Below, in pieces: positions 5,523 through 59,721 of a stretch of DNA of 64,000 bases (its first letter is position 1; each line of letters opens with the position of its first letter). Under the pieces are notes generated by a model. That model saw nothing but the letters and a program-made list of their open reading frames with translations, made no database searches and had not been told where the DNA came from. Origin of the DNA: Spirochaetota bacterium (lineage in GTDB: Bacteria; Spirochaetota; Spirochaetia; Treponematales; UBA12059). The translations under genes were made by a program, and so were the position numbers. Location of the stretch: assembly GCA_029547205.1 (NCBI GenBank), contig JAKPPT010000068.1:41922-105921 (forward strand), given 5' to 3'.

Positions 5523-7091
5523 ATGAGAATCAAACTGCATCTTCCTAAAGACAGAATCGATTATGCCCGCCAGCTTGCTAAACAGATTGCTGCTCCTGTA
5601 GGGGCATTTATCGATGCTCACAGTTCAGTGACGGTTGAACGCGCTACGCTCCGACTGGCAGGAGCTGATGGTGCTAATGCCGATGGTGTACCCGTCCCCA
5701 ACCTCGTTGTGGATCAGGTTAAAGCTGCAGATCCAGCACTGCTCGAAGACGGTGTTATTATTCGATATATCAATGCACTCATTAAAACCGGTCTTTCTAC
5801 TCAGGAACTCAATAAAAAAATTGCAGAAGGTTTCAATGTTATGAGCCTTCCGTTAGGCGACCGCTCAGCAATTGAAGCAAAATGCAATGAACTAGTAGCA
5901 CAGGGTCTGGGGAAAATAAAAGACAACCGTGCATATCGAGACAAAAAGCTTGAAGAGTTTCATGACCGCAATAACAAACCACTTCTCTATCTTATCGTTG
6001 CTACTGGTAATATCTATGAAGATGTCAAACAGGCAAAGGCTGCAGCAAAACAGGGTGCTGATGTTATAGCTGTAATCCGCACAACCGCGCAAAGCTTGCT
6101 CGATTATGTTCCGTACGGAGCAACTACAGAAGGATTTGGCGGAACCTACGCAACGCAGGAAAACTTCCGAATCATGCGCGCTGCACTCGACGAGGTAACC
6201 GAGCAGGAAAAACGGTATATCATGCTCACCAACTATGCATCGGGTCTCTGTATGCCGGAAATTGCTGCAATGGGCGCTCTTGAACGGCTAGACATGATGC
6301 TCAATGACTCAATGTACGGCATCCTCTTCCGCGACATCAACATGTACCGTACTTTTGTTGACCAGAAGTTCAGCCGCATGATCAATGCATATGCTGGTAT
6401 CATTATTAATACCGGAGAGGACAACTACCTTACTACAAGCGATGCGTATGAAAAAGCATATACCGTACTGGCAAGCCAACTCTTGAATGAGCAGTTTGGA
6501 TTTATGGCAGGGCTTCCTGCGCGTCTTCTCGGATTAGGTCACGCTTTTGAAATGGATCCTTCCATTAAAAATGGATTCCTCTATGAGCTTGCCCAGGCTC
6601 AGATGGCGCGCGAAATTTTCCCAGAGCATCCGCTCAAGTACATGCCACCCACAAAGTTCATGTCAGGAGACATTTTCAAAGGCTTAGTCATGGACAGCAT
6701 GTTTAATTTTGTTTCTAAAGCTACGAATCAGGGTATTCATCTCCTTGGCATGCTCACCGAAGCTATTCACACACCATTTATGATGGACCGGTACATTGCC
6801 GTCGATAATGCAAAATACATTATGAACAATATTGAAGATTTTTATGACGATATAGAGTTTAGAAAAGATGGTATTATTGTACGCCGTGCGCATGAGGTGC
6901 TCGATAAGACAATAAAATTCCTTGAGGAAGTTCAGGCAATTGGTTTGTTTGATGCCATCGAACGCGGACTTTTTGCTGATGTAAAGCGTCCAAAGGATGG
7001 CGGAAAAGGATTTGAAGGGCTCATTAAGAAGGGGCCACAGTATTTTAATCCATTTGAAAAGCAGCTCAAACAAGAGCTCAACATAAAATAA
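5523..7091 (+). CDS. kamD: D-lysine/beta-lysine 5,6-aminomutase alpha subunit
   Basis: 522 aa. The N-terminal pattern ...SSVTVERATLRLAGADG...VPVPNLVVD matches the KamD family. A B12-binding partner is encoded immediately downstream. Confidence 0.85.
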   Translation: MRIKLHLPKDRIDYARQLAKQIAAPVGAFIDAHSSVTVERATLRLAGADGANADGVPVPNLVVDQVKAADPALLEDGVIIRYINALIKTGLSTQELNKKIAEGFNVMSLPLGDRSAIEAKCNELVAQGLGKIKDNRAYRDKKLEEFHDRNNKPLLYLIVATGNIYEDVKQAKAAAKQGADVIAVIRTTAQSLLDYVPYGATTEGFGGTYATQENFRIMRAALDEVTEQEKRYIMLTNYASGLCMPEIAAMGALERLDMMLNDSMYGILFRDINMYRTFVDQKFSRMINAYAGIIINTGEDNYLTTSDAYEKAYTVLASQLLNEQFGFMAGLPARLLGLGHAFEMDPSIKNGFLYELAQAQMAREIFPEHPLKYMPPTKFMSGDIFKGLVMDSMFNFVSKATNQGIHLLGMLTEAIHTPFMMDRYIAVDNAKYIMNNIEDFYDDIEFRKDGIIVRRAHEVLDKTIKFLEEVQAIGLFDAIERGLFADVKRPKDGGKGFEGLIKKGPQYFNPFEKQLKQELNIK

Positions 7092-7103
7092 GGGAGAAAC
7101 GAT

Positions 7104-7844
7104 ATGAAGCTCATAAGAACATATGGTGACACGCTTGATGACGGTAAAGTCCAGCTTTCGTTTACCCTCCCGGTGCCGGATGGAGCCCGCGGCAGAGAGG
7201 CTGCACGGAAACTTGTACTTGCATGGGGTTTCAAAGAATGCGAAGTAGTGCACTCTGCTCCGCTCTCAGAAGAATTTTCCTTTTATGTAGTGTATGGCAA
7301 ATCCGAAACCGCAATCGATTTTGATACAGTTGAAGCTGATGAAATCGATAAAGATGCCTCAATGAGCATGGATGAAGTCAATGAGTTTATCAGGCAGCAT
7401 ATAAAGCGCAAAGTTGTCGTTGTTGGTGCATGCACAGGCTTCGATGCACATACTGTAGGTATTGACGCCATTATGAACATGAAGGGTTATAACCACCACT
7501 ATGGACTCGAACGCTATCCCGAAATAGAAGCCTACAATCTTGGAGCACAGGTTCCCAATGAAAAGCTCATCGATTTTGCTGTAAAAGTTAAAGCTGATGC
7601 TATTCTCGTAAGCCAGGTAGTTACACAAAAAGATACACACATTCATAACATGACCGAATTTATAGAACTGCTTGAGGCAAAGAACCTGCGAGACAGGTTT
7701 ATCTGTATAGCCGGTGGTCCGCGCATCGGCAACAAGCTTGCTGTAGAGCTCGGATTTGATGCCGGTTTCGGTCGTGGCACATACGCTGATGATGTTGCCA
7801 CGTTTATTGTGAAAAAACTTGTAGAAAAAGCACAAGCTTCCTGA
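7104..7844 (+). CDS. kamE: D-lysine/beta-lysine 5,6-aminomutase beta subunit (B12/PLP-binding)
   Basis: YGDTLDDGKVQLSFTLP N-terminus; DxHxxG cobalamin motif (GFDAHTVGIDAIMNMKGY); 246 aa. Confidence 0.85.
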   Translation: MKLIRTYGDTLDDGKVQLSFTLPVPDGARGREAARKLVLAWGFKECEVVHSAPLSEEFSFYVVYGKSETAIDFDTVEADEIDKDASMSMDEVNEFIRQHIKRKVVVVGACTGFDAHTVGIDAIMNMKGYNHHYGLERYPEIEAYNLGAQVPNEKLIDFAVKVKADAILVSQVVTQKDTHIHNMTEFIELLEAKNLRDRFICIAGGPRIGNKLAVELGFDAGFGRGTYADDVATFIVKKLVEKAQAS

Positions 7845-7852
7845 CAAAATGC

Positions 7853-7881
7853 TTGACAAAAGTGCGATAAATCGGTATAGT
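7853..7881 (+). promoter_or_regulatory. Sigma-70 promoter for tRNA-Asp
   Basis: TTGACA (7853-7858), 17-bp spacer, TATAGT (7876-7881), about 20 bp upstream of the tRNA. Confidence 0.6.
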
Positions 7882-7901
7882 CCGTTACTGTCAACTGACA
7901 C

Positions 7902-7975
7902 GGGGGCGTAGCGAAGCTGGTTATCGCGCTGGCCTGTCAAGCCGGAGATCGCGGGTTCAAGCCCCGTCGCTCCCG
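7902..7975 (+). tRNA. tRNA-Asp (anticodon GTC)
   Basis: Cloverleaf folded by hand: acceptor GGGGGCG/CGCTCCC, D-stem GCGA/TCGC, anticodon loop CTGTCAA, T-loop TTCAAGC; 74 nt. Confidence 0.85.
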
Positions 7976-7976
7976 A

Positions 7977-8004: not shown

Positions 8005-8055
8005 TTATGACCACTAGCCTATAGTGGCCGATCATCATTCTGCAACATAGTCAAT

Positions 8056-8128
8056 CGGGTTGTAGCGCAGGGGCTAGCGCGCTTGGTTCGGGACCAAGAG
8101 GTCGTGGGTTCAATTCCCACCAGCCCGA
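8056..8128 (+). tRNA. tRNA-Pro (anticodon CGG)
   Basis: Acceptor CGGGTTG/CAGCCCG, D-stem GCGC/GCGC, anticodon stem CTTGG/CCAAG with loop TTCGGGA, T-loop TTCAATT; 73 nt. Confidence 0.85.
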
Positions 8129-8267
8129 TATTTAGCCATCACTTTCACTATAACTTCTCACAAGCTTTCATACATACTGATGAATCATTAATCACTGCAC
8201 AGCTCACACCATGTTCAAAGCGCTTTGGCCTTAACATGTTTTTCCGCTGGCGCTATGGTATCGAACT

Positions 8268-8287
8268 CAGTGTCATGAAGCTTGTTG
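8268..8287 (-). repeat. Reverse-orientation copy (CAACAAGCTTCATGACACTG); a weaker forward copy lies at 8159-8177
   Basis: Direct read. Confidence 0.75.
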
Positions 8288-8309
8288 CATAAAATTATCT
8301 CCACAACAT

Positions 8310-9608
8310 TTAATTTGTACGAGATACCGAGCGTTTCATTTCTTCTGCAACTTTAGCTAATTGTTCATGCATGTGCTTCATATCGCGAATAAAGATACCG
8401 CCAATTGTAACAAGAACAATGCCACAAATGGTCCAGAATGATACAGAAACGGCAAGAGAAATAGTGAGCGTTGTGGCTACGGAAATAAGACCTGCAACCC
8501 ATCTTCCGATACCATTACCCAATGAATCGGTAAGATTGAAGATTGAGAATATTGCTCCTCGCTTTTCTGGTGGGTTTACATCCATTAACATTGCGCGCAT
8601 ATTGGGACCTGTCATAGCTGCAAAAAATGCTGCTAAAAAGCCGCTTATCAACATGAGCGGCACGCTAAGATTGACCAATATTACTCCGAGGGTCACTATC
8701 ATACCGAACAATGTGGTAATACCGCAAAATACGGGAAGCATGCGATTGTTTTTTACAAACACAAGCTGACCAAGCTTTCCTCCGACAATGGTTCCAATAA
8801 CCATACCAATTCCAAACACTAAAAAGATAGTTGTGGCAACTTCAACCGAAAAATGTTTTTCGGTTTCGAGAAATTTATTGAGAAAGAAGAATGCCCCCCA
8901 GGGTATCGTTCCTGCAATGCCCTGAACAAAAAGCCACACATTGGTTGGTACTTTTACAAGGGTTGCGTAATCGGCAAGTTTGATTGTTTTAGGATACAGT
9001 ACACCTGCTGCAACAAGTTCCTTTGTTGCTTCCTCTGAAGCAGCTTTTTGCGGTTCTGGTACAAATACCATAAAAAGTAATACAAAAATAACATTTGGTA
9101 CTGATACCAAAATAAAAGGAAGCCTCCAGCCAAGACTGGGTCCTAAATATCCGCCAACCACTGTTCCGACAATGTTCCCGAGCCCAAACGATGTAGTAAG
9201 CACAGCTGTTGTAAACGGTCTTTCTTTTTCATCATATATATCACCCAGTATCGAAAACACGAGAGGAAATGCTGCGCCTACTCCAATACCGGTAAGAATG
9301 CGAAGTATATAGAACACAGTAAAATTAGGTGCCCAGTAGGTAAGCAGGCATGGTATTTCACCGATTGCAACCGAAAGGACAAAGAGCATTTTTCTGCTTG
9401 CCTTATCAACAAAATAGCCCCACAAGAGGGATACTGCTGCACCGACCAGTGTAAAGAGAGCCATCATATTCCCTATTGCATCATCATTGACACCAAAATC
9501 AGCTTCAATTCGAGAAAGCATGGGTGCCATAACATTACCATCTGCATTGAGTGTTATCATGACAAGAACCATTAACACTAAGAGCAATGTTTTTTGCTGT
9601 TTTGTCAT
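8310..9608 (-). CDS. MFS-family transporter
   Basis: 432 aa, about 12 TM segments, with typical MFS loop motifs. Confidence 0.8.
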   Translation of the reverse strand: MTKQQKTLLLVLMVLVMITLNADGNVMAPMLSRIEADFGVNDDAIGNMMALFTLVGAAVSLLWGYFVDKASRKMLFVLSVAIGEIPCLLTYWAPNFTVFYILRILTGIGVGAAFPLVFSILGDIYDEKERPFTTAVLTTSFGLGNIVGTVVGGYLGPSLGWRLPFILVSVPNVIFVLLFMVFVPEPQKAASEEATKELVAAGVLYPKTIKLADYATLVKVPTNVWLFVQGIAGTIPWGAFFFLNKFLETEKHFSVEVATTIFLVFGIGMVIGTIVGGKLGQLVFVKNNRMLPVFCGITTLFGMIVTLGVILVNLSVPLMLISGFLAAFFAAMTGPNMRAMLMDVNPPEKRGAIFSIFNLTDSLGNGIGRWVAGLISVATTLTISLAVSVSFWTICGIVLVTIGGIFIRDMKHMHEQLAKVAEEMKRSVSRTN

Positions 9609-10132: not shown

Positions 10133-11836
10133 CTATTCAATAGATAATCCTCTCATAAACTTGAGATGTGACCATCCTCCCGATATATTTTTAACATGCT
10201 TGAATCCATGCTGCTTTAACATTCTTACAGCTAGATGACCTTCGAACCCTCCGACCGAAATACAGTAAATTGGCTTATCGCGAGGGATTTCATCTATCCT
10301 GTCACGCAGCTCATCAACAGGGATATGCAGGCTGTTTTTAATGTGTCCTTTTGCATATTCACCATAATTACGCACGTCCAGCCACAGTACTGCATCTGGA
10401 TTTTTTAACGATGTTTCTATTTCATCCATACTGATAACAGGACTGTATCCGGAAAGATTGTTTACAGCCATAAACGCAGCCATATTAAGAGGATCATTTG
10501 CAGATGAATATGGTGGCGCATACGCAAAATCGATTTCAGCCAAGTCGTATACAGTCAAGCCTGCATGCAATGCAACTGCGACCGCATCGATGCGTTTTTC
10601 TACACCTTGTTTGCCAAAAGCTTCAGCTCCAAGGAGACGTCCATTCTTTTCGTTGTACACCAATGTTAACAAAATATCTTCTGCACCAGGATAGTAACCT
10701 GCATGATTACCTTTAATGAGCGAAACTTCTCGTACAGGTAACCCTGCTCGCTTTGCTTGGGTAAAAGAAAGACCTGTACTCGCAAGTGTTGTATCAAATA
10801 TTTTGATAACAGAAGTTCCCAGGGCACCCTTATAGCTCATTGGAGTAAGCATGCTCATAGACTCTGGCATTGATTTTCCGCTATGCCATGCAAGCACAGC
10901 ATTTGTTGCAGCAATACGCCCCTGCCTGTTAGCAGGTCCTGCAAGCGGTATTCGTACTTTTGCATTTGAGATTTTTGATTCAATTTCGATCATGTCTCCT
11001 GCAGCCCAGATCCAAGGATCACTCGTTCTAAGGAATTCATCAACAGCAAGACCACCAGTCTTACCAATTTCAAGCCCAGCTTTTTGCGCTAGTTCAGTAT
11101 TCGGTTTAACACCAGCTGACACTAAGACAAGATCTGCTGGTATTGCTGTACCATTACCAAGGATAACTGCAGTATCGGTTATTTTTTTTACAACAGCATT
11201 TGTGTAAACAGCTGCGCCTCTTTCTTTGAACTGATCTTCGACATGCCTGCCATATACTGCATCGAGCTGTGGCATTACATGATCGAGTGCCTCGACAATG
11301 GTTACGGTAAGTCCTCGCTCAACAAACGCTTCAGCTGTTTCAAGTCCAATAAAACCGCCGCCAATCACTACTGCATTGCGAGGCGATTGTTCTTTGATAT
11401 GTTTAAGAATTTTATCCATATCAGGAATAGTCCAGAGCTTGAATACATGAGGAGCATCGATACCTTCAATGTTTGGGAAAACAGGAGTTCCTCCCTGAGC
11501 AAGCAGCAATACGTCATACGCCAGCGCCTGTTCGGTACTACCTTCTGCTGTTTTGGTATCAACTGTAACCTGCTTGCTGTTTCTATTCACCGCTATTGCT
11601 TCGGTATTGAGCATAACCTGAACACGGTAGCGGCTCATAAAGCCTTCTGGCGTTTGAACAAGCAGCTTACTTCGTTTTTCAATAGCCCCAGAAATATGAT
11701 AGGGCAAACCACAGTTAGCAAACGAAACATATGGACCGCGCTCTACAATAGTAATTTCAGCATGTTCATCAAGTCTTCTAATTCGTGCTGCAGCCGTAGC
11801 ACCTGCTGCTACACCGCCAATAATAAGTGCTTTCAT
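10133..11836 (-). CDS. CoA-disulfide reductase / NADH oxidase family flavoprotein with C-terminal rhodanese domain
   Basis: N-terminus MKALIIGGVAAGATAA (FAD fold); redox Cys in SFANCGLPY; C-terminal rhodanese with GGF...GH. Confidence 0.85.
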   Translation of the reverse strand: MKALIIGGVAAGATAAARIRRLDEHAEITIVERGPYVSFANCGLPYHISGAIEKRSKLLVQTPEGFMSRYRVQVMLNTEAIAVNRNSKQVTVDTKTAEGSTEQALAYDVLLLAQGGTPVFPNIEGIDAPHVFKLWTIPDMDKILKHIKEQSPRNAVVIGGGFIGLETAEAFVERGLTVTIVEALDHVMPQLDAVYGRHVEDQFKERGAAVYTNAVVKKITDTAVILGNGTAIPADLVLVSAGVKPNTELAQKAGLEIGKTGGLAVDEFLRTSDPWIWAAGDMIEIESKISNAKVRIPLAGPANRQGRIAATNAVLAWHSGKSMPESMSMLTPMSYKGALGTSVIKIFDTTLASTGLSFTQAKRAGLPVREVSLIKGNHAGYYPGAEDILLTLVYNEKNGRLLGAEAFGKQGVEKRIDAVAVALHAGLTVYDLAEIDFAYAPPYSSANDPLNMAAFMAVNNLSGYSPVISMDEIETSLKNPDAVLWLDVRNYGEYAKGHIKNSLHIPVDELRDRIDEIPRDKPIYCISVGGFEGHLAVRMLKQHGFKHVKNISGGWSHLKFMRGLSIE

Positions 11837-12025
11837 TGCATACTCCATAACAATCAGATATATTAAATATATATATATTTATTTATATAGTCAATATACT
11901 ATATATAAAAATCACTTTTACATGGTATCGCTTTATTAAATCGGTTAAACGTGCTACTATACATGCACCAATACTATTGATAGTTGTTGATTGATACATG
12001 AATCCTCTCAGATAAAGGACACAAT

Positions 12026-13579
12026 ATGCATAGACGTTCAAGCGGAATTTTGCTCCATATCACATCGCTTCCCGGCTCTCCAGGAATCGGTACAATTGGT
12101 AAGCCTGCGCATCGGTTTATCGACGCGCTTAAAAGAGCGGGACAGACCCTCTGGCAGATTTTACCGCTAGGACCAACCGGATATGGCGATTCACCCTATG
12201 CACCTTTTTCTAGCTTTGCAGGGAATGAAATACTCATAGATTGCCATGAACTTGCAGAAGCAGGTCTCTTACCAGATTCATCTCTGAGCGCATTAGACAG
12301 CCTGCCATCTCACACAGTAGACTACTGGGCTGTTAAACAGACTGTACTACCGCTCCTTACTCGTGCTGCTGAACGCTTTCTCGAACTGCACCCTGATGAT
12401 ACAGCATACCAGACATTTAAAGAGCAGCAGTGTTACTGGCTCGATGATTACACGGTATTCCGTTCTATTAAAAATTACCATGACGAAAAAGCACAACAGG
12501 AAGGTGCTGTCTCGACTTGGAACACATACTGGCCCATAGAACTCAGACAGCATACATCAAAAGCTGTTCTAGAGTGGAAAAAAGATCATGCTCATGAAAT
12601 TGAGGTTCTCAAGGTAATTCAGTTCTTTTTCTTTTCCCAGTGGGCAAAACTAAAACGCTATGCTAAGGAACAGGGAATTGCCATTATTGGCGATATTCCA
12701 ATATTTGTAGCTCTTGATTCTGCTGATGTGTGGTCCCATCCTGAACTTTTTAACCTCGACAAGAATTTTGCACCTATCACGGTTGCTGGAGTTCCTCCCG
12801 ATTACTTTAGTCCGACGGGACAGCTCTGGGGAAATCCTACATACCGATGGAGTGAACATAAAAAAACTAAGTTCACCTGGTGGATTGAACGGATGCGTAT
12901 CTCGATGGAGCTCTACGATTACGTTCGTATCGATCACTTCCGCGGGTTTGCAGGATACTGGTCTGTCCCCGCAGGGAACCCAACAGCTGAACATGGTGAA
13001 TGGTTACCAGCAGAAGGTGAGGCACTATTTAAAGAAATGGAACAGGTGCTCGGTAAACCACTCCCCATTATTGCAGAAGATCTTGGTGTCATTACCGATG
13101 ATGTTGTCGAGCTTATGGAAAATTTTAATTTCCCCGGCATGAAGGTATTGCAGTTTGCCTTTGATGGTCAACGGATTGACAATTTCTATGCAGGTACTAA
13201 CCAGTTCCTGCCACACAATTGTCCTATCCGTTCGGTGATGTATACGGGGACACATGACAATGATACCCTTCAAGGTAAATACAGCAAGGCTCCCGATTGG
13301 GAAAAAGCATGCATAGCAGAATACCTGGGGTATTGGCCAGAATCCTTTCCGCGAGCACTCATTCAGGAAGCATTAAAATCGGTATCTCAATTTGCTATAA
13401 TTCCTATGCAGGATATTCTTGAGCTCGGAAGTGATGCTCGCATGAATACACCTTCAGTGCTCGGAGGAAACTGGCTCTGGCGTATGCGTAGCGATGATTT
13501 TAATGAATCACGACAAACCTGGCTCAAAGCAGTGTCGCTACGATATGGCAGGAATCTTCCGGAAAACAATAGCAATTAG
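12026..13579 (+). CDS. malQ: 4-alpha-glucanotransferase (amylomaltase)
   Basis: SGILLHITSLPG...GIGTIG...WQILPLGPTGYGDSPY is the GH77 N-terminal signature; 517 aa. Confidence 0.9.
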   Translation: MHRRSSGILLHITSLPGSPGIGTIGKPAHRFIDALKRAGQTLWQILPLGPTGYGDSPYAPFSSFAGNEILIDCHELAEAGLLPDSSLSALDSLPSHTVDYWAVKQTVLPLLTRAAERFLELHPDDTAYQTFKEQQCYWLDDYTVFRSIKNYHDEKAQQEGAVSTWNTYWPIELRQHTSKAVLEWKKDHAHEIEVLKVIQFFFFSQWAKLKRYAKEQGIAIIGDIPIFVALDSADVWSHPELFNLDKNFAPITVAGVPPDYFSPTGQLWGNPTYRWSEHKKTKFTWWIERMRISMELYDYVRIDHFRGFAGYWSVPAGNPTAEHGEWLPAEGEALFKEMEQVLGKPLPIIAEDLGVITDDVVELMENFNFPGMKVLQFAFDGQRIDNFYAGTNQFLPHNCPIRSVMYTGTHDNDTLQGKYSKAPDWEKACIAEYLGYWPESFPRALIQEALKSVSQFAIIPMQDILELGSDARMNTPSVLGGNWLWRMRSDDFNESRQTWLKAVSLRYGRNLPENNSN

Positions 13580-13627
13580 CCACTTTCACAAGGTTCGTTG
13601 CATTACTGACAGCTAGAGGAATGGTAC

Positions 13628-19543: not shown

Positions 19544-19628
19544 GAGATTGTCGATAGTGTCACGAAAATTGTGGAGATAATGTTATGCACAAGCTTCATG
19601 ACACAAGGCATTCTTTTTACAAGCTTCA
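19544..19628. repeat. Three copies of the same repeat family in the cdaA-folP intergenic region (one reverse, two direct)
   Basis: 19544-19558 reverse (TTCGTGACACTAT), 19578-19597 (CACAAGCTTCATGACACAAG), 19608-19628 (TACAAGCTTCATAGCACTAAG). Confidence 0.85.
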
Positions 19629-19649
19629 TAGCACTAAGTTTAGCATGCA

Positions 19650-31676: not shown

Positions 31677-32324
31677 TTAACATGTTACTGTCCTGTTGTT
31701 TGAGTCTTTGATTGACCAGTATGCTGTGCTCGTATTTCTTGTAAAGCTTTTAAGCCAAAAACATAATGCATCAACTGTTATTGGAACAGAATCCCGTGTT
31801 AGTGTTGTTTCTGCACAAAAGTCAGTAACACGGGTACGAATGTCAATGAGATCACTTACTGAATCAAAAAATGGTAAAATCAGAAAAACTCCAGGGCCTT
31901 TTACTGCTTTAAATCGTCCAAGTCTAAGAATTATTGCTCGTTCCCATTCTCGCGTCATCTGAATCATTGTGCTTGCACTGCAGCTAAAAGCATAAATGCC
32001 GATAAACAAACCGATGGTAAACGGATTTACGTTATCCATTGATAACAGTGCGCCTATAAATGCAGAACTTAAAAAAAATATAACAAAGCCAATTTCCCAG
32101 CGTCTTAACCAGAATGTCCCAGCGATAAAAAGTAAAGGAAGGGCACATGCAATACCAACCCTTGCAGAAAAGGCATTGTACCCGAACTGAATTCCCATTA
32201 CGCATATTCCTGTGAACCAGAGTAGTAAAAATACCATTATATTAAAAGCATTCCAGGAAAAATGCGGTTCAAGTATAGGTTCATGAATATTCTTTATAAG
32301 ATAATGTTTTTTTCTTTCAGCCAT
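31677..32324 (-). CDS. Membrane protein: 4-TM N-terminal domain fused to a truncated SPFH/band-7 domain
   Basis: REWERAIILRLGRFKAVKGPGVFLILPFFDSV...ITVDALCFW matches the stomatin/QmcA SPFH N-terminal half. The protein ends about 90 aa into the domain. Confidence 0.55.
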   Translation of the reverse strand: MAERKKHYLIKNIHEPILEPHFSWNAFNIMVFLLLWFTGICVMGIQFGYNAFSARVGIACALPLLFIAGTFWLRRWEIGFVIFFLSSAFIGALLSMDNVNPFTIGLFIGIYAFSCSASTMIQMTREWERAIILRLGRFKAVKGPGVFLILPFFDSVSDLIDIRTRVTDFCAETTLTRDSVPITVDALCFWLKSFTRNTSTAYWSIKDSNNRTVTC

Positions 32325-32742
32325 GTTTGCTCCCTCCTTGCTCAGTCATTAGCAATTTAATCATTTCAATTAAATCTTTATACTGTATACCTAGCTTTTC
32401 AGCTTTTTTAAGCAAATTGAAAATATCAAGCTCAAGTTCATCTACCGCTTTCTGTCGCAATTTTTGTTCTTCAGGATGAGCAGCAATATCTGCAACATAT
32501 GTTCCGCTTCCGACCTGCGTAATAACAATCCCGCGAATTTCTAATTCTGTGTATGCCTTGGCAATTGTGTTAGGATTTATCTGTAGTTTTACTGCCAGTT
32601 CACGAATTGTTGGAAGTCGTGTTCCTGGCTGGAGCTTTCCAAACTGTACAGCATGTTCAATTGCATGAATAATTTGTCTATAAAATGGCACTCCACTTTT
32701 TGTATCGAGAAGAAAAGAAAATTCATTTTCCATATCTGCCAT
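32317..32742 (-). CDS. GntR-family transcriptional regulator, short YtrA-like subtype
   Basis: wHTH motif RLPTIRELAVKLQINPNTIAKAY. Start placed at the internal Met, which has a GAGGA RBS. Confidence 0.8.
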   Translation of the reverse strand: MADMENEFSFLLDTKSGVPFYRQIIHAIEHAVQFGKLQPGTRLPTIRELAVKLQINPNTIAKAYTELEIRGIVITQVGSGTYVADIAAHPEEQKLRQKAVDELELDIFNLLKKAEKLGIQYKDLIEMIKLLMTEQGGSKHG

Positions 32743-32767
32743 AATTTTCCTCATTCAATCGAGGCTA

Positions 32768-32805
32768 TTTGTCATATTGTACTAGTTTAATAGTACAATA
32801 TGACA
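32768..32805. promoter_or_regulatory. Perfect 16-bp-arm inverted repeat, TTGTCATATTGTACTA-N6-TAGTACAATATGACAA; putative YtrA-like autoregulatory operator
   Basis: Read directly from the sequence; lies 26 bp upstream of the regulator start. Confidence 0.6.
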
Positions 32806-32831
32806 ACATTTCTGTCAAGAAACAATTTTTC

Positions 32832-32978
32832 CTAGTGTCACGAACATTGTAAAACTGATTTCTTTAGTAACTATGCGTTTGATTTTAAGAGAAAGTGCAG
32901 AATAATATTGTATTGTTGAGAGATATCTCTACTAAATAATGTAGGGATACGTTTATACACAAACTTCGTGACACTAGA
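32832..32978. repeat. Inverted pair of repeat-family cores (CTAGTGTCACGAA ... TTCGTGACACTAG) flanking a 118-bp AT-rich segment
   Basis: 32832-32845 and 32964-32978 form 13-bp perfect inverted repeats. Confidence 0.8.
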
Positions 32979-41419: not shown

Positions 41420-41971
41420 TTAGCTTGATGCCTTTGCTTTGAGAACGCTCAGAATTGGCGAGTTTTTAAAGTATCGGTTTAAAAGTGCATAATCATATGC
41501 TGTTTTGCCAGTTTTACTCTTTAACGTTGCATTTGCTCCAGCTTCGAGCAAAATAGTGATCATCGTAGCATTAGAATTATAGCCAGCAGCGTACATGAGT
41601 GCTGTACGACCGCTTGAATCTTGAGCATTAACCTCAGCTCCGACTTTGATGAGCGTGCGAATTACTTCAGGATTGGTGTTGTTGAGTGCAGCATACATGA
41701 GCGCTGTCATCCCCAGCTTATCGCGAAAATTAACATCAGCGCCAGCCGCTATCAGCATGGTTATAACCTCAGTGTAGTAGTTAAATGCAGCAGCGTACAT
41801 GAGCGGTGTACTCCCATTGCTATCTGTAGTGTTTATGGGAAAACCGGAGAGAAGGAACGCTGAAACCTGTTCGGGCTTTCCTGTTCTAAACACATCAAAT
41901 TTGGGTGCATCAGCTGAAATAATCGTAATAATAACGAAAATTATCAGAATCAGAGCCGCTCTACGCTTCAT
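41420..41971 (-). CDS. Secreted ankyrin-repeat protein
   Basis: Signal peptide followed by about four ANK repeats (TPLMYAA...GADVN, TALMYAA...). Confidence 0.8.
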   Translation of the reverse strand: MKRRAALILIIFVIITIISADAPKFDVFRTGKPEQVSAFLLSGFPINTTDSNGSTPLMYAAAFNYYTEVITMLIAAGADVNFRDKLGMTALMYAALNNTNPEVIRTLIKVGAEVNAQDSSGRTALMYAAGYNSNATMITILLEAGANATLKSKTGKTAYDYALLNRYFKNSPILSVLKAKASS

Positions 41972-42102
41972 TAATCCTCCCTTGCTCTATACCGTATCAA
42001 AAACCATAACTATTCAGTATCAGTATAAAAGAGAAAATAGCTTTTTGTCAAAGCAGGTAGCATGTAGAGTTGTATAAATCAAATATATAGAAACTGGATT
42101 TT

Positions 42103-42123
42103 CACAATTTTCATGACACTAAG
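42103..42123 (+). repeat. Variant copy (CACAATTTTCATGACACTAAG)
   Basis: Direct read. Confidence 0.7.
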
Positions 42124-45866: not shown

Positions 45867-45888
45867 CACAAGCTTCCTGTCACTAAAG
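45867..45888 (+). repeat. Copy of the repeat family (CACAAGCTTCCTGTCACTAAAG)
   Basis: Direct read. Confidence 0.85.
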
Positions 45889-45944
45889 CTCCTTTACAAC
45901 ACCCGTAACTCTGCTATCATTATATGTATCCAGAGGAGGGCACC

Positions 45945-46745: not shown

Positions 46746-46750
46746 ATGCT

Positions 46751-46828
46751 CACAAGCTTCGTGGCACTAACCACAAGCTTCGTGGCACTAGGCATGTGCT
46801 GGATACTCACAAGCTTCCTGACACTAAA
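46751..46828 (+). repeat. Tandem triplet of the 20-bp intergenic repeat CACAAGCTTC(G/C)TG(G/A)CACTA(A/G)
   Basis: Copies at 46751-46770, 46772-46791 (21-bp period) and 46808-46828. Confidence 0.9.
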
Positions 46829-46882
46829 TTCAGGTTGATGAAAGCTCATTAATCTGCTAGCATAAGACATGAGGTAGACCTA

Positions 46883-53330: not shown

Positions 53331-53639
53331 GTTTTGCCAATAGGTCTTTACAAACACCTTGCACCCTGTTACTGTGAGATCTTTCCACTTCCCGAATGCT
53401 GCGTACAGACACTAACCTGTGGTTGGTGTCAGGAAGCTTGTTAACAAACGCACCACAACAATATTTAGTATGTATATTTATACATCATACAACATATTGT
53501 TTACTCTCGGTAAAAACAATTTTGTAGTAAGTACAAACAACTTTTTCACATTCTTCATGACACCAGCACCATCTTGTTTCTGTACCTTCTTTCATGGTAT
53601 TGTATGAGCATCTCCGAGTTTTTATATCTACATCATACG

Positions 53640-53770
53640 GTCTATGACACGATATAAAAACCGAGGTTGTGAGCAGCACAATCACTCATGTTGTACGTGT
53701 TTCATGCTCGCAGCCGAGGGTTGTTCTGGAAACAGAGCAGCCTCCCGTATTTTGGAAAGGAGGAGTATCA
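53640..53770 (+). promoter_or_regulatory. Candidate molybdenum/tungsten-cofactor (Moco/Tuco-type) riboswitch leader
   Basis: Structured leader upstream of the tupA-moa operon. A 13-bp stem capped by a GAAA tetraloop sits at 53716-53744. CCGAGG and CCUCCCG elements lie next to the RBS GGAAAGGAGG. Confidence 0.35.
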
Positions 53771-54652
53771 ATGAAGTTTCTCAATGTTTTGATAGCGGTA
53801 CTTGGGATTGTAGTGTTTTCACTTTCCGCTTGTAAACAAACACCAGCAATACGACTTGCTACCACAACCAGTCTTGAACAATCAGGTCTTCTTGGAGAAC
53901 TGATTGAAGCATTTACGAAAAAACAGCATATACCGATTCAAGTTATCACCACCGGGAGTGGGGCAGCGCTTGAACTTGGTAAAAATGGTGATGTAGATGT
54001 AATTATTGCTCATGCTCCAGAATTGGAAAAGCAATTTATGGATTCTGGATATGGGCTTGAACGACATTCGTTTCTATACTCACGTTTTGTTGTACTCGGC
54101 CCTCTTGAAGATCCTGCACACATTGCAAACGCTCAAAACCCAGAGGATGTATTCAAGCGTATAGCTCTCTACAATCAAAGAGGTAATACACAAAAAACAT
54201 TTAATAATTTACCACAACAGCATGCTATGTTTGTATCACGAGGGGATAATTCGGGGACAGATGTTTTGGAAAAATCGATCTGGAACAAGATTGGGATAAA
54301 ACCTGATTCATCGTGGTACAAAGAATCGGGTCAGGGAATGAGCGAAACGATACTCCTTGCGAATGCTCTCAGTGCGTATACCATTTCTGATTTGCCTACC
54401 TGGCTTGCTGTATCAGAGAGCGCATGGTTTAAACAAAATTACTCAAATACAGTAACTATACTGTATGACGCTCCCGGGCAACAGGATTTTTCTAACATAT
54501 ATAGTGTCATTGTCATCAAAAACAATAGTGCTCCTCAAAACCAAAATAACGCAAAATTATTTGCTGATTTTCTTCTCACTGAGGAGTCTCAATCTATTAT
54601 CAATAATTTTTCGATACAAGGAATACGCTGCTATAACAGCATACAACCTTAA
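53771..54652 (+). CDS. tupA: Tungstate/molybdate-binding periplasmic lipoprotein (TupA/WtpA-type)
   Basis: Lipobox LSAC; RLATTTSLEQSGLL...GDVDVIIAHAPE matches TupA. Confidence 0.75.
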   Translation: MKFLNVLIAVLGIVVFSLSACKQTPAIRLATTTSLEQSGLLGELIEAFTKKQHIPIQVITTGSGAALELGKNGDVDVIIAHAPELEKQFMDSGYGLERHSFLYSRFVVLGPLEDPAHIANAQNPEDVFKRIALYNQRGNTQKTFNNLPQQHAMFVSRGDNSGTDVLEKSIWNKIGIKPDSSWYKESGQGMSETILLANALSAYTISDLPTWLAVSESAWFKQNYSNTVTILYDAPGQQDFSNIYSVIVIKNNSAPQNQNNAKLFADFLLTEESQSIINNFSIQGIRCYNSIQP

Positions 54653-54666
54653 TCAATGGGGAAACA

Positions 54667-55329
54667 ATGAACGCTGTATCAATTTTGGAAATTATAGAAA
54701 TATCACTAAGGAGTTTATATTTTGCTTTTACTGCAGCCCTGCTTGCTATGCTCGCAGGGCTTATTCCTGGTATCTGGATTTCAAGAAATGACCAGTATCA
54801 GCACAAAGCAATAAAAAAAATTCTGACATCAATTATCAGCACGCTGACATCTATTCCAACAGTAGTAATTGGAATTTTTGTTTACATGCTGCTTTCAAAA
54901 AAAGGTATTCTTGCAGGGCTTAACTGGCTTTATACATCATCGGGTGTCATTTTTGGAGAATTTTTATTAGCATTACCATTAGTGATTCACCATCTTGTTT
55001 CTGGATTTTCTAAAATTGACTCTACACTATTTGAAACGCTTGCGGTATTTAAAGCTGATGCCCTGAGTACAATTACGATTACAGCAAAAGAAGCCATGCC
55101 TGTTTTGGGCGGTGCTCTCACACTGGCATTTGGAAGAGTTATAGGAGAGGTTGGCCTTGTTATGATGATAGGCGGTAATATCAGGCACGCTACTCGCACA
55201 ATGACAACAGCCATTGCACTTGAGACTTCAAAGGGTAATATCCATGCTGCAACAGTGCTCGGAATAGTTCTTTTACTTATATCGCTTATTGTCAATATTA
55301 CCATCAACTATATTGCGAATTATGAATAA
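54667..55329 (+). CDS. tupB: Tungstate ABC transporter permease
   Basis: 5-6 TM BPD_transp_1 fold. Confidence 0.75.
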   Translation: MNAVSILEIIEISLRSLYFAFTAALLAMLAGLIPGIWISRNDQYQHKAIKKILTSIISTLTSIPTVVIGIFVYMLLSKKGILAGLNWLYTSSGVIFGEFLLALPLVIHHLVSGFSKIDSTLFETLAVFKADALSTITITAKEAMPVLGGALTLAFGRVIGEVGLVMMIGGNIRHATRTMTTAIALETSKGNIHAATVLGIVLLLISLIVNITINYIANYE

Positions 55330-55972
55330 CAAGTTTATTTTTAACAAGCTACATTTCTCATACAAAAATCAGAGTTCATTTTTTTTAACTATTCCATATT
55401 TCGAACTAAACACAAAAGAACCTGTTCGTATTGGTGGAACTAACGCGAGCGGCAAGACCACACTCCTTAAACTGTGTTCAGGACTCTTAAAACCAATCTC
55501 TGGTGAAATTTTATTTAATGAACATACTATCTATCCTATACAAAAACATCCAGAAAGTATTATCTACGTACACCAAAACCCATATATTTTTAAGGGAACT
55601 GTACTATTCAATATTAAAACAGTGCTTGCACTCTATAAAATTTCCGGATTCAAAGCAGATTCAGCAATTGACGAGATTGTATCCTCTTTTAGCATTAAAA
55701 ATATTTTACATAAAAAGCATTATGAACTTACTACTGGAGAAAAACAAAAAGCAGCTCTTGCTCGCGCATTTGTTATAAAACCAAATGTATTACTCCTCGA
55801 TGAACCGAGCACTGGCCTCGATGCTGAAGCAAAAATCATGCTAGCAGCTGCTATAAAACAGAATGCAGCAAATGGTTCTTCAATTATATTTGCATCGCAT
55901 GATTTTGAATTTTGCAACTACATCAAACCATATACTATTACAATTGATGCAGGTACTCTAAAACATCTTTAA
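55322..55972 (+). CDS. tupC: Tungstate ABC transporter ATP-binding protein
   Basis: Walker A GTNASGKTT, ABC signature, Walker B LLLDEPSTGLD. Confidence 0.75.
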   Translation: MNNKFIFNKLHFSYKNQSSFFLTIPYFELNTKEPVRIGGTNASGKTTLLKLCSGLLKPISGEILFNEHTIYPIQKHPESIIYVHQNPYIFKGTVLFNIKTVLALYKISGFKADSAIDEIVSSFSIKNILHKKHYELTTGEKQKAALARAFVIKPNVLLLDEPSTGLDAEAKIMLAAAIKQNAANGSSIIFASHDFEFCNYIKPYTITIDAGTLKHL

Positions 55973-55994
55973 CAATCGGAGACGGAGAATAATA

Positions 55995-57272
55995 ATGGAA
56001 CAATCTATTCATCCCGATCATGCGCTGGAACTCATTCTGGAAGCAGCTAATCTTTTTCCACTAAAAACAGAGACTATCCCAATAGAACAGTCAGCAGGCA
56101 GAGTACTTCCCTATTCAGCATGCTCACTTATTGATCAGCCTCCATTTACAAAGTCTGCCATGGATGGTTATGCATACAACAATGCAACTCCCTGTCTGGA
56201 ATATACACTAGCGGAAGCTGTTAAAGCAGGCAGTCATAGAAGCACTCCGCTTGGTCCCTGTGAAGCTGTACCCATCATGACAGGTGCCCCAATTCCAAAC
56301 GGTGCTAATGCTGTTCAACGTATAGAATGGACTGAACGCTCACGCGACAGAGTTAAGTTTACCAAACAGGAAACAATAAGCAATCTTATAATGCAGGGAG
56401 AAAACTGCAAAGCAGGTGATATTGTATTAACTCCACGCATTATTGCTCCACAGGATATTGGAATACTTGCTGCATCAGGTTACCGCACTGTCACAGTATC
56501 GGTTCCGCCACGTGTTGGCATACTATCAACCGGCGATGAACTCCATGAACCTAATTGTTCTCTTAATCAGCAATCAGAGCTACAGGCTATTATGAATCAG
56601 GCAGCTCGTTATCTTGGTCCCGCTGGTATTTACGATTCAAACGGCTATCAACTTACTGCACATGCTCTTGCATGCGGAGTGTATGCTCACTTCCTGGGCA
56701 TCTGTAAAGACGATCCTCATGAGCTAGCAGCTGCGCTATCAGAGGCCTTACTAAATTATGATATTGTAATACTGTCAGGCGGTGTATCCAAGGGTGATTT
56801 TGATTATATTCCTACTATTGCAAAACAATGTGGAGTAAAGCCTGTATTCCATGAACTTACAATGCGCCCCGGAAAACCAACATTTTTTGGTACTAAAGAC
56901 TGCAAAGCAGTATTTGGTCTTCCAGGAAATCCTGTTTCAACGTTTGTCAATTTTGAAGTATTGGTAAAACCATTGCTCTATAAATCCATGGGCATTTCCT
57001 ATGCTCCTCATATCGTACCAGCACTATTAAATGAAGACATTAGACGGAAAGGTTCAGATCGGGTGGAATTTCTTCCTGGCAATCTGAGCTATAAAAGCAG
57101 TAGTAATGACAACACTTTCTGTTTCCCCGTTATAACGCCCCTCAAATACCATGGTTCTTCTATGATTACAGCATTAGCAGGAGCAAATGTCCTCATTCGG
57201 ATTGAAAAAGGCATAGAGCACCTATCAAAAGGAGACACTATACATGTTAGACTCATTCGGCCGCTCTATTGA
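55995..57272 (+). CDS. moeA: Molybdopterin molybdenum/tungsten transferase
   Basis: ...PPFTKSAMDGYAY... MoeA N-terminal motif; 425 aa. Confidence 0.85.
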   Translation: MEQSIHPDHALELILEAANLFPLKTETIPIEQSAGRVLPYSACSLIDQPPFTKSAMDGYAYNNATPCLEYTLAEAVKAGSHRSTPLGPCEAVPIMTGAPIPNGANAVQRIEWTERSRDRVKFTKQETISNLIMQGENCKAGDIVLTPRIIAPQDIGILAASGYRTVTVSVPPRVGILSTGDELHEPNCSLNQQSELQAIMNQAARYLGPAGIYDSNGYQLTAHALACGVYAHFLGICKDDPHELAAALSEALLNYDIVILSGGVSKGDFDYIPTIAKQCGVKPVFHELTMRPGKPTFFGTKDCKAVFGLPGNPVSTFVNFEVLVKPLLYKSMGISYAPHIVPALLNEDIRRKGSDRVEFLPGNLSYKSSSNDNTFCFPVITPLKYHGSSMITALAGANVLIRIEKGIEHLSKGDTIHVRLIRPLY

Positions 57273-58065
57273 CTACCTGCGGATTTCCGTAACCGACCGC
57301 TGCAACCTCCGCTGTTTTTACTGCATGCCAGAAGAAGGGATAGAGCTTCTTAAACATGAGGCTATTTTAAGTTATGAAGCTATAACACAGGTCGCACAAA
57401 AGGCAGTAAAGCTTGGCTTTACCAAAATAAGACTAACGGGCGGCGAGCCACTTATCCGAAAAAACATTGTTGATCTTGTTGCTATGTTAAGTAATATTAG
57501 TGGCATTAAAACTATCGCTATGACAACAAACGGAACTCTGCTTTCTGATCTTGCTCAGGAACTTAAGAATGCAGGACTCACGAGCATCAATGTATCGCTG
57601 GATACGATGAACAGCACTCTCTACAATATCATTACCCGCGGAGGCTCACTCGATGCAGTTCTAAAAGGAATTTATGCCGCAAAAAATGCAGGATTGGCAA
57701 TTAAAATTAACACAGTTGTATTAGATACTGCATCACCGATATTAGCAGAACAAAAATTTAAGCAAGATATCGAAGCTGTTAGATCATTCGCTGACTCTAT
57801 TGGCGCTCACTTTCAGCGCATTGCTCAATACAATCTTGCTCATATCAAACAGGACTACGGTGAAATAGAACGACCTCCGGCTTGTGCCTCTTGCAACAGA
57901 TTGCGGTTACTTGCAAATGGCGTGTTGAGACCTTGTTTACACTCAAACATAGAAATCCCCATTGATTTTACAAATATTGAAGCAAGCATTAAAAGTGCTA
58001 TTGCTCTCAAGCCTGCGCATGGTCTTTCGTGCACGGGTTTAACAGTTGGGCAAATTGGAGGATAA
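57244..58065 (+). CDS. moaA: GTP 3',8-cyclase (radical SAM)
   Basis: CNLRCFYC cluster motif preceded by DYLRISVTDRCN. Shortened C-terminal region. Confidence 0.85.
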   Translation: MLDSFGRSIDYLRISVTDRCNLRCFYCMPEEGIELLKHEAILSYEAITQVAQKAVKLGFTKIRLTGGEPLIRKNIVDLVAMLSNISGIKTIAMTTNGTLLSDLAQELKNAGLTSINVSLDTMNSTLYNIITRGGSLDAVLKGIYAAKNAGLAIKINTVVLDTASPILAEQKFKQDIEAVRSFADSIGAHFQRIAQYNLAHIKQDYGEIERPPACASCNRLRLLANGVLRPCLHSNIEIPIDFTNIEASIKSAIALKPAHGLSCTGLTVGQIGG

Positions 58066-58068
58066 TGT

Positions 58069-58590
58069 ATGAGTAATAATCAGTTAACGCATGTCGATGA
58101 AAACGGAAAAGCCCGCATGGTCGATGTTTCAGCAAAACCTCGCGTCCGCAGAACAGCGCGGGCTGAAGGATTCATACGATTACATCCAGAAACTATTCAA
58201 GCAATAAAGGCTAACACGATTGCAAAAGGGGATGTCCTTGCCACTGCCCGTATTGCTGGAATTATGGCAGCCAAACAGACTGCATCGCTCATTCCACTCT
58301 GTCACAATATAGAAATCGAATACGTGCAGCTTGATGCTGAAATTATTGAAACTGCTGGCGATTCTGCAAACGGCACCAACTGCTCTGGTAATCCTCTAAA
58401 CAGCAGTAGCCATTGCGGAGTCAAACTTACGAGTTTGTGTACCTGTACCGATAAAACTGGAATTGAAATGGAAGCGCTCACTGCTGTGTCTGTTGCAGCT
58501 CTCACCATTTATGATATGTGCAAGGCAATTGATAAATCAATGGTTATAGAAACTATACGTTTACTCGAAAAAACAAAGGAGGAATTTTAA
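58069..58590 (+). CDS. moaC: Cyclic pyranopterin monophosphate synthase, carrying a 20-aa Ser/Asn/Cys-rich insertion
   Basis: LIPLCH and TGIEMEALTAVSVAALTIYDMCKA motifs. Confidence 0.85.
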   Translation: MSNNQLTHVDENGKARMVDVSAKPRVRRTARAEGFIRLHPETIQAIKANTIAKGDVLATARIAGIMAAKQTASLIPLCHNIEIEYVQLDAEIIETAGDSANGTNCSGNPLNSSSHCGVKLTSLCTCTDKTGIEMEALTAVSVAALTIYDMCKAIDKSMVIETIRLLEKTKEEF

Positions 58591-59108
58591 TGGTATCAAT
58601 AAATGATAACACTGATTCACAAAAAGAAGGTACCTTTAGTATTGTATCGATTAATGTTTCAGAAAAAACCGGAACACGAAAGCGACCGGTACAGACCGCG
58701 GTATTGATACCTGGTAAAGGTATTGACGGGGACGCACATGCCGGCATCCTTGATGACAGACAGGTTTCACTCCTGGCGATTGAAGATATTGAACAGGCTA
58801 ACAATTCTCTCAAAACAAAACCTGGCTGCTGCACGAAAGCGCTCGGACTTGAACAGCTTAATCCTGGTGATTTTGCGGAAAATATTACAACCCGAGGTAT
58901 CAATTTACACAACCTCCCCATAGGGACTGAACTCCGAATAGAGGATGCGATACTCGAAGTTTCACGTATCGGAAAAGAGTGTCACGCAGCCTGTGAAATA
59001 CGGACACTGGTAGGTGATTGCATCATGCCCCGTCGTGGTATTTTTGCACGTGTCATTCAAGGAGGAACCATTACCAATGAAAGTAACTGTTATTACCGTA
59101 TCCGATAG
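58590..59108 (+). CDS. MOSC-domain protein
   Basis: 172 aa; beta-barrel MOSC pattern with conserved Cys (KECHAAC). Confidence 0.6.
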   Translation: MVSINDNTDSQKEGTFSIVSINVSEKTGTRKRPVQTAVLIPGKGIDGDAHAGILDDRQVSLLAIEDIEQANNSLKTKPGCCTKALGLEQLNPGDFAENITTRGINLHNLPIGTELRIEDAILEVSRIGKECHAACEIRTLVGDCIMPRRGIFARVIQGGTITNESNCYYRIR

Positions 59109-59544
59109 AGCTTCTCGTGGCGAATACGAAGACAAATCGGGTCCAGCCATACTCGATGTCATCAAGACTGAAATTCCAGATACAGAACTGGAATATGAAG
59201 TCGTCCCCGATGGCTTTACTTCTGTGCTTTCAGCACTCAAGCGACACATCGATTCCGATTGGATACTCACCACAGGTGGCACAGGTCCTGCACCGCGTGA
59301 TGAAACCCCTGAAGCGACTCGCGCATACATTACAAAATCTATGCCAGGAATTGCTGAGTACCTGCGCATGAAATCGCTTGAGGAAACTCCCTTTGCTGTT
59401 TTCTCCCGGGGAGAAGCAGGCATGAGAGAGAGGCAGTATATTGTCAATCTACCCGGAAGTGAAAAAGGCGCCCGGTTTTGCACAAAACTACTCATTCCAC
59501 TGCTCAAACATGGAATCCATATGGCTGAAGGCGGCGGACATTAG
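59077..59544 (+). CDS. mogA: Molybdopterin adenylyltransferase MogA/MoaB
   Basis: MKVTVITVSDRAS...GGTGPAPRD; RBS AAGGAGGA. Confidence 0.85.
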   Translation: MKVTVITVSDRASRGEYEDKSGPAILDVIKTEIPDTELEYEVVPDGFTSVLSALKRHIDSDWILTTGGTGPAPRDETPEATRAYITKSMPGIAEYLRMKSLEETPFAVFSRGEAGMRERQYIVNLPGSEKGARFCTKLLIPLLKHGIHMAEGGGH

Positions 59545-59721
59545 TTTATGTAACACCATGGAGGCAGCCATCTTCTTTCACTGATCAGATGCCCATCTCT
59601 TTTCACTATCCAATACTATAAATTTACTAGAGATTTTTTTTATTACCAGTCTAATATATGCTATACTGTACCAGTACACGTATAACATGAGAGTTATAGC
59701 CTTGATCACAAGGAGGTGCTT

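Follow-up and report, generated by a model that had tools for sequence, protein, structure and literature searches.

A 20-bp sequence, CACAAGCTTCNTGNCACTAA, recurs between the genes of the 64,000-nucleotide stretch of a Spirochaetota genome analysed here (the window), and three of its copies lie close together upstream of phoH. This raises the question of what kind of sequence it is. The preliminary description had named three candidates, a REP/MITE-like element, a DNA-uptake-type sequence and the binding site of a global regulator.

Copies of the repeat and their surroundings

With up to three mismatches allowed, the window contains 12 matches to CACAAGCTTCNTGNCACTAA, against 0.06 ± 0.24 expected from dinucleotide shuffles, and three weaker matches have four mismatches (Table 1). 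The family of at least 14 copies proposed earlier is therefore real. Some of its coordinates were shifted by 6–10 bp: the copies placed at 19544, 19578 and 19608 exist, and start at 19554, 19588 and 19618. The inverted pair 32832/32964 with 13-bp arms is indeed a pair, with its right copy at 32958 and arms of 20 bp. From the other proposed pair, 8159/8268, the copy at 8267 stands, while 8159 carries an indel and is doubtful. Two further copies, 13587 and 53423 (which pairs with 53547), had escaped notice. The supposed tandem triplet with a 21-bp period comprises a perfect 21-bp tandem duplication (46751/46772, detected by TRF) and the copy at 46808, which is 36 bp further and off register. As stated before, the 20-mer is no simple palindrome; its best self-stem has 5 bp with a G·T pair.

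The earlier impression that the repeat is almost exclusively intergenic was borne out. All 15 copies are intergenic, spread over nine regions; coding sequence fills 89% of the window, whose GC content is ~42%, and the probability that nine independent loci would all be intergenic is ~2e-9. The sole overlap with a gene is that of the copy at the kamE stop codon. Convergent, divergent and tandem intergenic spaces are used alike, and the neighbours are functionally unrelated housekeeping genes. An Rfam scan gave no match at the repeat copies.

Table 1. Repeat copies and the elements they belong to in the window. Matches to CACAAGCTTCNTGNCACTAA have at most three mismatches unless marked 4m (four mismatches); hmm positions and E-values refer to the nhmmer MITE model described in the text.
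Feature	Position	Strand	Matches to CACAAGCTTCNTGNCACTAA (start, strand)	Remarks
Solo degenerate TIR	7831..7850	+	7831+	Contains the kamE TGA stop; tRNA-Asp promoter 2 nt later
Truncated MITE end, TIR and ~30 nt sub-terminal	8267..8315	-	8267-	Adjoins the stop codon of an MFS transporter gene; hmm positions 98-143, E 8e-6
Weak degenerate TIR-like copy	13587..13606	+	13587+ (4m)	Between a 4-alpha-glucanotransferase gene (12026..13579) and murB
Internally deleted 54-bp mini-MITE	19554..19607		19554-, 19588+	R-TIR, 14 nt GAGATAATGTTATG matching the sub-terminal block of the MITE consensus, F-TIR; hmm positions 99-143, E 1.8e-6
Extra solo F-TIR	19618..19637	+	19618+	2 mismatches; 30 bp after the preceding F-TIR
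Full-length MITE, 146 bp	32832..32977	+	32832- (4m), 32958+	Left TIR CTAGTGTCACGAACATTGTA, right TIR CACAAACTTCGTGACACTAG; divergent GntR / ABC-transporter promoter region; E 3.7e-31 in + orientation, 0.045 in -
Truncated MITE, other end, TIR and ~20 nt sub-terminal	42082..42122	-	42103+	hmm positions 2-41, E 9e-6
Solo TIR, exact match	45867..45886	+	45867+	6 nt upstream of promoter-like TTTACA-16-TATCAT
Two TIR copies, perfect 21-bp tandem duplication	46751..46791	+	46751+, 46772+	
Solo TIR, exact match	46808..46827	+	46808+	Followed after 7 nt by the conserved phoH promoter, TTGATG-17-TAGCAT (46835-46863)
Full-length MITE, 144 bp, opposite orientation	53423..53566	-	53423-, 53547+ (4m)	Between a TPR gene and the Moco riboswitch; E 1.1e-31 on - strand, 5.8e-4 on +

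The region upstream of phoH was compared with that of relatives whose PhoH proteins are 89%, 82% and 67% identical to the one in the window. The motif is absent from the 4, 7 and 21 kb of sequence available around these genes. Upstream of the relatives' phoH the promoter TTGATG-17-TAGCAT is kept, and a terminator hairpin stands where the window has its three repeats; at two of these loci (L045 and L046, 82–89% PhoH identity) the promoter and the leader are conserved next to a different upstream gene. The operator of a global regulator, as proposed in the preliminary description, was rejected because the phoH promoter is kept in relatives without the repeats, the genes beside the copies are functionally unrelated and all kinds of intergenic context are used alike. 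A sigma-54 promoter, considered for the TGGCAC found in two copies, was also discarded: most copies read TGACAC, with no GC box after it.

Several other features were noted beside the copies. The genes for tRNA-Asp(GTC) at 7901–7976 and tRNA-Pro(CGG) at 8055–8129 directly follow the lysine 5,6-aminomutase genes kamD/kamE (5523–7844) and are preceded by a near-consensus promoter, TTGACA-17-TATAGT (7853–7881). An imperfect (AT)n run of ~24 units (11858–11907) occupies the divergent intergenic region between genes 10133–11848 (-) and 12026–13579 (+). At 32769–32806 a 38-bp near-perfect palindrome, TTGTCATATTGTACTAGTTTAATAGTACAATATGACAA, overlaps the promoter-like sequence TTGACA-17-TACTAT of a GntR-family gene (32317–32754, minus strand) and is probably the operator of this regulator itself. 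Three direct repeats with a 102-bp period (41586–41815) are coding; they lie inside ORF 41420–41971 and correspond to ankyrin repeats (Pfam Ank_2). The promoter-like sequence TTTACA-16-TG-TATCAT (45893–45924) ends 3 nt before the annotated ATG of a GIDE-domain gene, so that the mRNA may be leaderless or the true start may lie further downstream. Finally, a Moco (molybdenum/tungsten cofactor) riboswitch at 53600–53778 (+; Rfam 75.8 bits) precedes an operon with an ABC transporter and MoeA/MoaA/MoaC/MOSC/MogA-type genes (53779–59544). No consensus promoter was found in the 34-nt gap between the MITE at 53423–53566 and this riboswitch, so the Moco operon may be transcribed from within the MITE or from a point upstream of it.

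The copies are not confined to this one region: the family is also present just left of the window on the same contig (L131, 8807/8890), on other contigs that share this MITE family, and in numerous genomes of spirochaetes. When one genome per species was scanned, the exact motif was recurrent in Treponema-like and other spirochaete MAGs, and other phyla gave single, chance-like matches only. Another 56 loci came from a metagenome scan. Among hosts whose genomes span 40 to 69% GC, the 18-bp core AGTGTCACGAAGCTTGTG hardly varies. Set against the absence of the motif near phoH in the relatives, this makes for a patchy distribution. Viral contigs contained three single, unpaired matches, and a tblastn search against plasmids gave no match.

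Paired copies and the units they bound

That the repeat appears in both orientations had been correctly recognized, but one rule had been missed: two copies that form a pair always point tail-out, TTAGTGTCACGAAGCTTGTG ... CACAAGCTTCGTGACACTAA (R...F). Across the retrieved loci and the window we counted 53 nearby R-then-F pairs, and the reverse order is suggested nowhere except at the doubtful pair 8159/8267. The interior between paired copies measures 103–106 bp in the window species, 110–112 bp in Spirochaetota MAG048 and 61–78 bp in high-GC treponemes. One apparent long pair, at L039, encloses a CobW gene and was dismissed as a chance pairing.

Unoriented alignments and blastn had suggested that the interiors are unrelated. 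This was rejected, since the elements lack symmetry and lie in either orientation; once oriented, the ~145-bp units of the window group align end to end. They share the conserved blocks TTGATTTT and AATAT.ATTGTAT, as well as TACTAAATATTGTGGAG, which precedes one TIR by ~15 nt. Seven copies served to build an nhmmer model, which recovered full-length copies outside the training set at E-values of 1e-14 to 8e-30, in one orientation only. Oriented interiors are on average 66% identical (79% at most) versus 60% in shuffled or flipped controls, and the TIRs are on average 84% identical. The interiors have no excess folding or self-complementarity (z about 0), and no ORF of at least 80 aa starts inside 32832–32977 or 53423–53566. 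Their divergence is near saturation; the family is thus old and has possibly lost its activity.

The paired units are short and non-coding, have inverted ends with 20-bp arms, occur in multiple copies that are homologous in their interiors as well and have a cognate IS (see below), as expected of MITEs. The window carries two intact ~145-bp MITEs and three truncated or internally deleted ones, the remaining copies being solo or tandemly duplicated TIRs; six copies are present in the 15-kb locus L118. From the REP/MITE-like element proposed earlier, the MITE half can be retained, the repeats being the TIRs of ~145-bp MITEs and of their parent IS.

A difference between strains was found at window position 59549/59550, where a strain of the same species (L130, 97.4–99.75% identical) has 246 extra bp (L130 6797–7042) including a complete MITE. 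In this indel the MITE is accompanied by unique flanks of 28 and 73 bp; it shows neither a duplication nor a clean insertion or excision footprint, and the indel may reflect a deletion or an import by recombination instead of an insertion. The identity between L130 and the window shifts at this very point, being 97.4% on its left side and 99.75% on its right, which suggests a recombination boundary at the indel. A MITE at an unrelated locus (L059) matches that of L130 with 84% identity over 150 bp, and this likeness indicates that whole units have been copied.

Evidence for target-site duplication comes from one element. The MITE at L118 11149–11303, inside the 3' UTR of an IS, is flanked on both sides by the exact 8-bp duplication CAATAGGA; the chance of one such match across the 48 elements tested is ~0.02. 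In the same scan (8-mers, offsets 0–4) the other 47 of the 48 elements were no better than random pairings of flanks, which is uninformative because the interiors are so diverged. At nearly every copy the dinucleotide TA is conserved immediately outside GTG...CAC, and it could be either a target duplication or a part of the TIR.

The 21-bp tandem duplication upstream of phoH has counterparts elsewhere. Exact duplications of this kind, with copies identical within each, are located at window 46751–46791, L065 426–466 and L083 11435–11475, the latter two at the ends of intact MITEs, and L089 2226–2330 contains a degenerate array with a 21-bp period and about six units. These duplications of the outward TIR arose independently at several loci.

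The parent insertion sequence and its transposase

At three metagenome loci the two members of an R...F pair are ~1.25 kb apart and enclose an ORF of 375 aa; further loci were added by tblastn. The same TIRs bracket an ORF of 375–380 aa in six lineages with a mutual identity of 49–58% (L079/L101; L099; L094=L065=L118; L033, partial; L122; L041). The autonomous element is an IS of 1.27–1.29 kb with the order TIR, 70–90 nt, ORF, 23–33 nt, TIR. This standard layout was found in five of the six lineages, L041 being bracketed differently.

The deviating lineage belongs to MAG048. Nearly every intergenic space in its loci (L041 1606–7576, L044 1479–6377, L037 6310–6461) holds an R...F pair of 150–152 bp, and nine such pairs were counted in these three loci, 23 kb in all. 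The gene for the transposase homologue (L041 3218–4381) is preceded at 30 nt by an F-TIR, and an R-TIR is found at its stop codon. Two 150-bp pairs thus enclose it "inside-out" (F..ORF..R), opposite to the usual IS arrangement. An integron attC array, considered for the fixed-length pairs in L041 and L044, was rejected: the flanking genes are housekeeping genes (Dus, TatD, glycosyltransferase) and the interiors are unstructured.

An alignment of 150 sequences of the bracketed protein (A1) revealed invariant residues C8, C13, C44, C47, D126, D216 and R268-K269-D270, and E266 is nearly invariant. The AlphaFold model (pLDDT 95, pTM 0.92) has an RNase-H-like core with D126 on strand 1, D216 after strand 4 and E266 on the following helix, the arrangement that defines DDE transposases with an RNase H fold. 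According to this model the ORF encodes a DDE transposase with an RNase-H-like fold, and D126, D216 and E266 are its predicted catalytic triad.

Searches of Pfam and NCBIfam gave no match that reached a cut-off and none to the catalytic domain, and a PDB sequence search with the family profile returned only zinc-finger and HTH noise. Weak NCBIfam matches cover the N-terminal third (zinc finger and HTH); they were to ISL3 in 73 of 77 members (best E 1e-8) and to IS1 in 61 of 77 (best E 6.3e-6), with scores of 15–40 bits versus curated cut-offs of 180 and 100 bits. For ISL3 (NF033550, 180 bits; Pfam DDE_Tnp_ISL3) the best scores were ~20–35 bits, N-terminal only and with no Pfam match. For IS1 (NF033558, 100 bits) three individually scanned proteins scored 16–18 bits, and the 77 members remained far below the cut-off. 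In its presumed DNA-binding N-terminus the transposase is a distant relative of ISL3 and IS1; by the available models it belongs to neither family.

Other traits place the new elements near several known systems. ISL3 and IS1 are likewise single-ORF ISs of ~1.3 kb with an N-terminal zinc finger and HTH before the DDE core, and they make 8-bp duplications, the length of the one that flanks the MITE at L118. The ends of ISL3 and IS1 are GG-initiated, unlike the TIR found here, TAGTGTCACGAAGCTTGTG. A TA just outside GTG...CAC would fit the TA target duplication of IS630/Tc1-mariner elements, and the size of the IS fits these as well. The IS256/Mutator transposase ISCth4 (PDB 6xg8) is also among the closest known systems.

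The family is large, with at least 401 clusters at 50% identity at E ≤ 1e-30 and at least 1731 at E ≤ 1e-3. NCBI records name its members "hypothetical protein", for example in Rectinema subterraneum, and many members are located on contigs of 1.2–1.3 kb. At one locus (P0155; L119–L128, e.g., L122 1413–2669) a single IS copy is fixed at one site in 10 or more metagenome samples; it lies between a TetR-family gene and a gene for an AMP-binding enzyme, and both flanking ORFs run into the TIRs.

No transposase homologue is present in the 64-kb window. Proteins of the window are identical to proteins of "Spirochaetia/Spirochaetales bacterium" MAGs from anaerobic digesters [HON87840/87841/89753; HOT59318/59331/60624; HQK34882/34883; HQG39337]. 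The version of the transposase that adjoins MITEs of the window family (L094/L065/L118) occurs in the same four accession series [HON89100; HOT59043; HQK35686; HQG39891]. In the HON series its accession falls between those of two window proteins, and in the other three it is within about 300–800 of that of a window protein. Judging by these blocks, and assuming that GenBank protein accessions are contiguous per submission, the transposase is probably encoded in four MAGs of the window species, each binned independently. The lack of a transposase gene in the window and the dependence of the species link on accession blocks of binned MAGs both count against the IS/MITE reading.

Interpretation, alternatives and significance

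On balance, the 20-mer is very probably the TIR of a family of cut-or-copy DDE transposons, widespread among Spirochaetota, and the window carries only its non-autonomous descendants. The N-terminal zinc finger and HTH of the transposase would bind the TIR, and the RNase-H-fold centre with D126, D216 and E266 would cleave and join the ends. The enzyme probably acts in trans on any DNA between two tail-out TIRs, including short deletion derivatives. Such action, with only intact-ended copies propagating, would keep the TIRs ~84% identical while the interiors drifted to ~66%. Insertions would survive only in intergenic DNA, and purifying selection on the host would explain this restriction. In either direction, one reading frame of the TIR contains a stop codon, and insertions at the 3' ends of genes, as at kamE, would therefore be tolerated.

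Four points do not follow readily from this scheme. Simple transposition leaves unexplained the recurrent exact 21-bp tandem duplications of the TIR. The IS/MITE reading also leaves unexplained the near-invariance of the TIR despite transposases that are only ~50% identical, the pair density and inside-out bracketing in MAG048, and four outward TIR ends in the window that lie 2–13 nt from promoter-like -35 boxes (tRNA-Asp, GIDE, phoH, GntR). On their account we keep a small probability for co-option by the host, with the TIRs serving as regulator or insulator sites for the zinc-finger/HTH protein or a derivative of it, or with the paired 20-bp ends forming terminating or processing stems. The conservation of the TIRs far above that of the interiors would suit such a role, but element-level selection for transposability already accounts for it. 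Conservation of the phoH promoter in relatives points the same way, although the copies themselves are absent from the orthologous site. Pairs located between convergent genes in Go_SlDig_bin_479, the transposase copy fixed at P0155 and the MAG048 pairs in almost every intergenic space are further points in its favour. Adjacency to promoters, however, is not general (4 of 48 flanks versus ~1 in shuffles, a weak null), every intergenic context is occupied beside unrelated housekeeping genes, and the interiors lack excess folding; co-option as an account of the repeat is accordingly unlikely. Slightly better, though still low, is the chance that in some genomes the ends have been domesticated as protein-binding or stem-forming intergenic punctuation, with the zinc-finger/HTH protein as reader; this idea draws on the fixed-length pairs of MAG048, the promoter-abutting TIRs and the recurrent 21-bp tandems.

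REP or REPIN elements mobilised by a RAYT (Y1/HUH transposase), the other half of the REP/MITE proposal, are also abundant, intergenic and found in inverted pairs, and the outer end GTAG (GTAGTGTCAC...) in several genomes recalls the GTAG head of REPs. This head reads TTAG, CTAG or ATAG in the window species, a single copy forms no stable hairpin, and the bracketed gene encodes a DDE protein with an RNase H fold, not a RAYT, which makes REP elements very improbable. Still less credit can be given to invertons, in which a site-specific recombinase would flip a promoter segment of ~105 bp between inverted repeats. The 20-bp repeats do surround a short AT-rich segment with promoter-like hexamers (e.g., TTGATT-16-AATAAT inside 32832–32977), but in assemblies of eight loci from two to five samples each the interior was always co-oriented with the flanks, pairs also occur between convergent genes, and the density of up to one per 2 kb is far too high. 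Equally negligible is the proposed DNA-uptake sequence, or any other short oligonucleotide favoured genome-wide: the motif is short, over-represented and present on both strands, but it has zero copies in the coding 89% of the window, exceeds with its 20 bp the length of known uptake sequences and is part of larger homologous units and of an IS.

Returning to the IS/MITE reading, the family is of an ordinary kind, MITEs with a cognate IS, and its new part is an unmodelled IS family found throughout the Spirochaetota; our literature search found no description of this sequence or of a similar spirochaete MITE or IS. Among bacterial MITEs with a cognate IS, the Correia/NEMIS elements of Neisseria are ~100–155 bp long with 26-bp TIRs. 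The spirochaete elements resemble them in length (~145 bp, and 55–152 bp in other genomes), in having ~20-bp TIRs and no ORF, in their many intergenic copies, often abutting gene ends or promoters and including truncated and solo forms, and in that their TIRs can form a long stem if transcribed. They differ in that their interiors are far more diverged than the TIRs and their length is genome-specific (~145 bp in the window species, 150–152 bp in MAG048, 55–118 bp elsewhere). They differ also in the 18-bp TIR core, which is near-identical over hosts of 40–69% GC with transposases only ~50% identical, and in the recurrent duplication of one TIR as a 21-bp tandem.

In these genomes the repeat should be annotated as the ends of MITEs and ISs, and it should be masked ahead of any search for motifs or regulons. 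Since the transposase family is unmodelled in Pfam and NCBIfam and its records are named hypothetical, a family model would re-annotate many spirochaete genes; it would also help to explain assembly breaks. Copies are situated beside the promoters of tRNA-Asp, phoH, the GntR regulator and the Moco riboswitch, and one supplies the stop codon of kamE. Because of this placement, they are candidates for strain-specific differences in gene expression.
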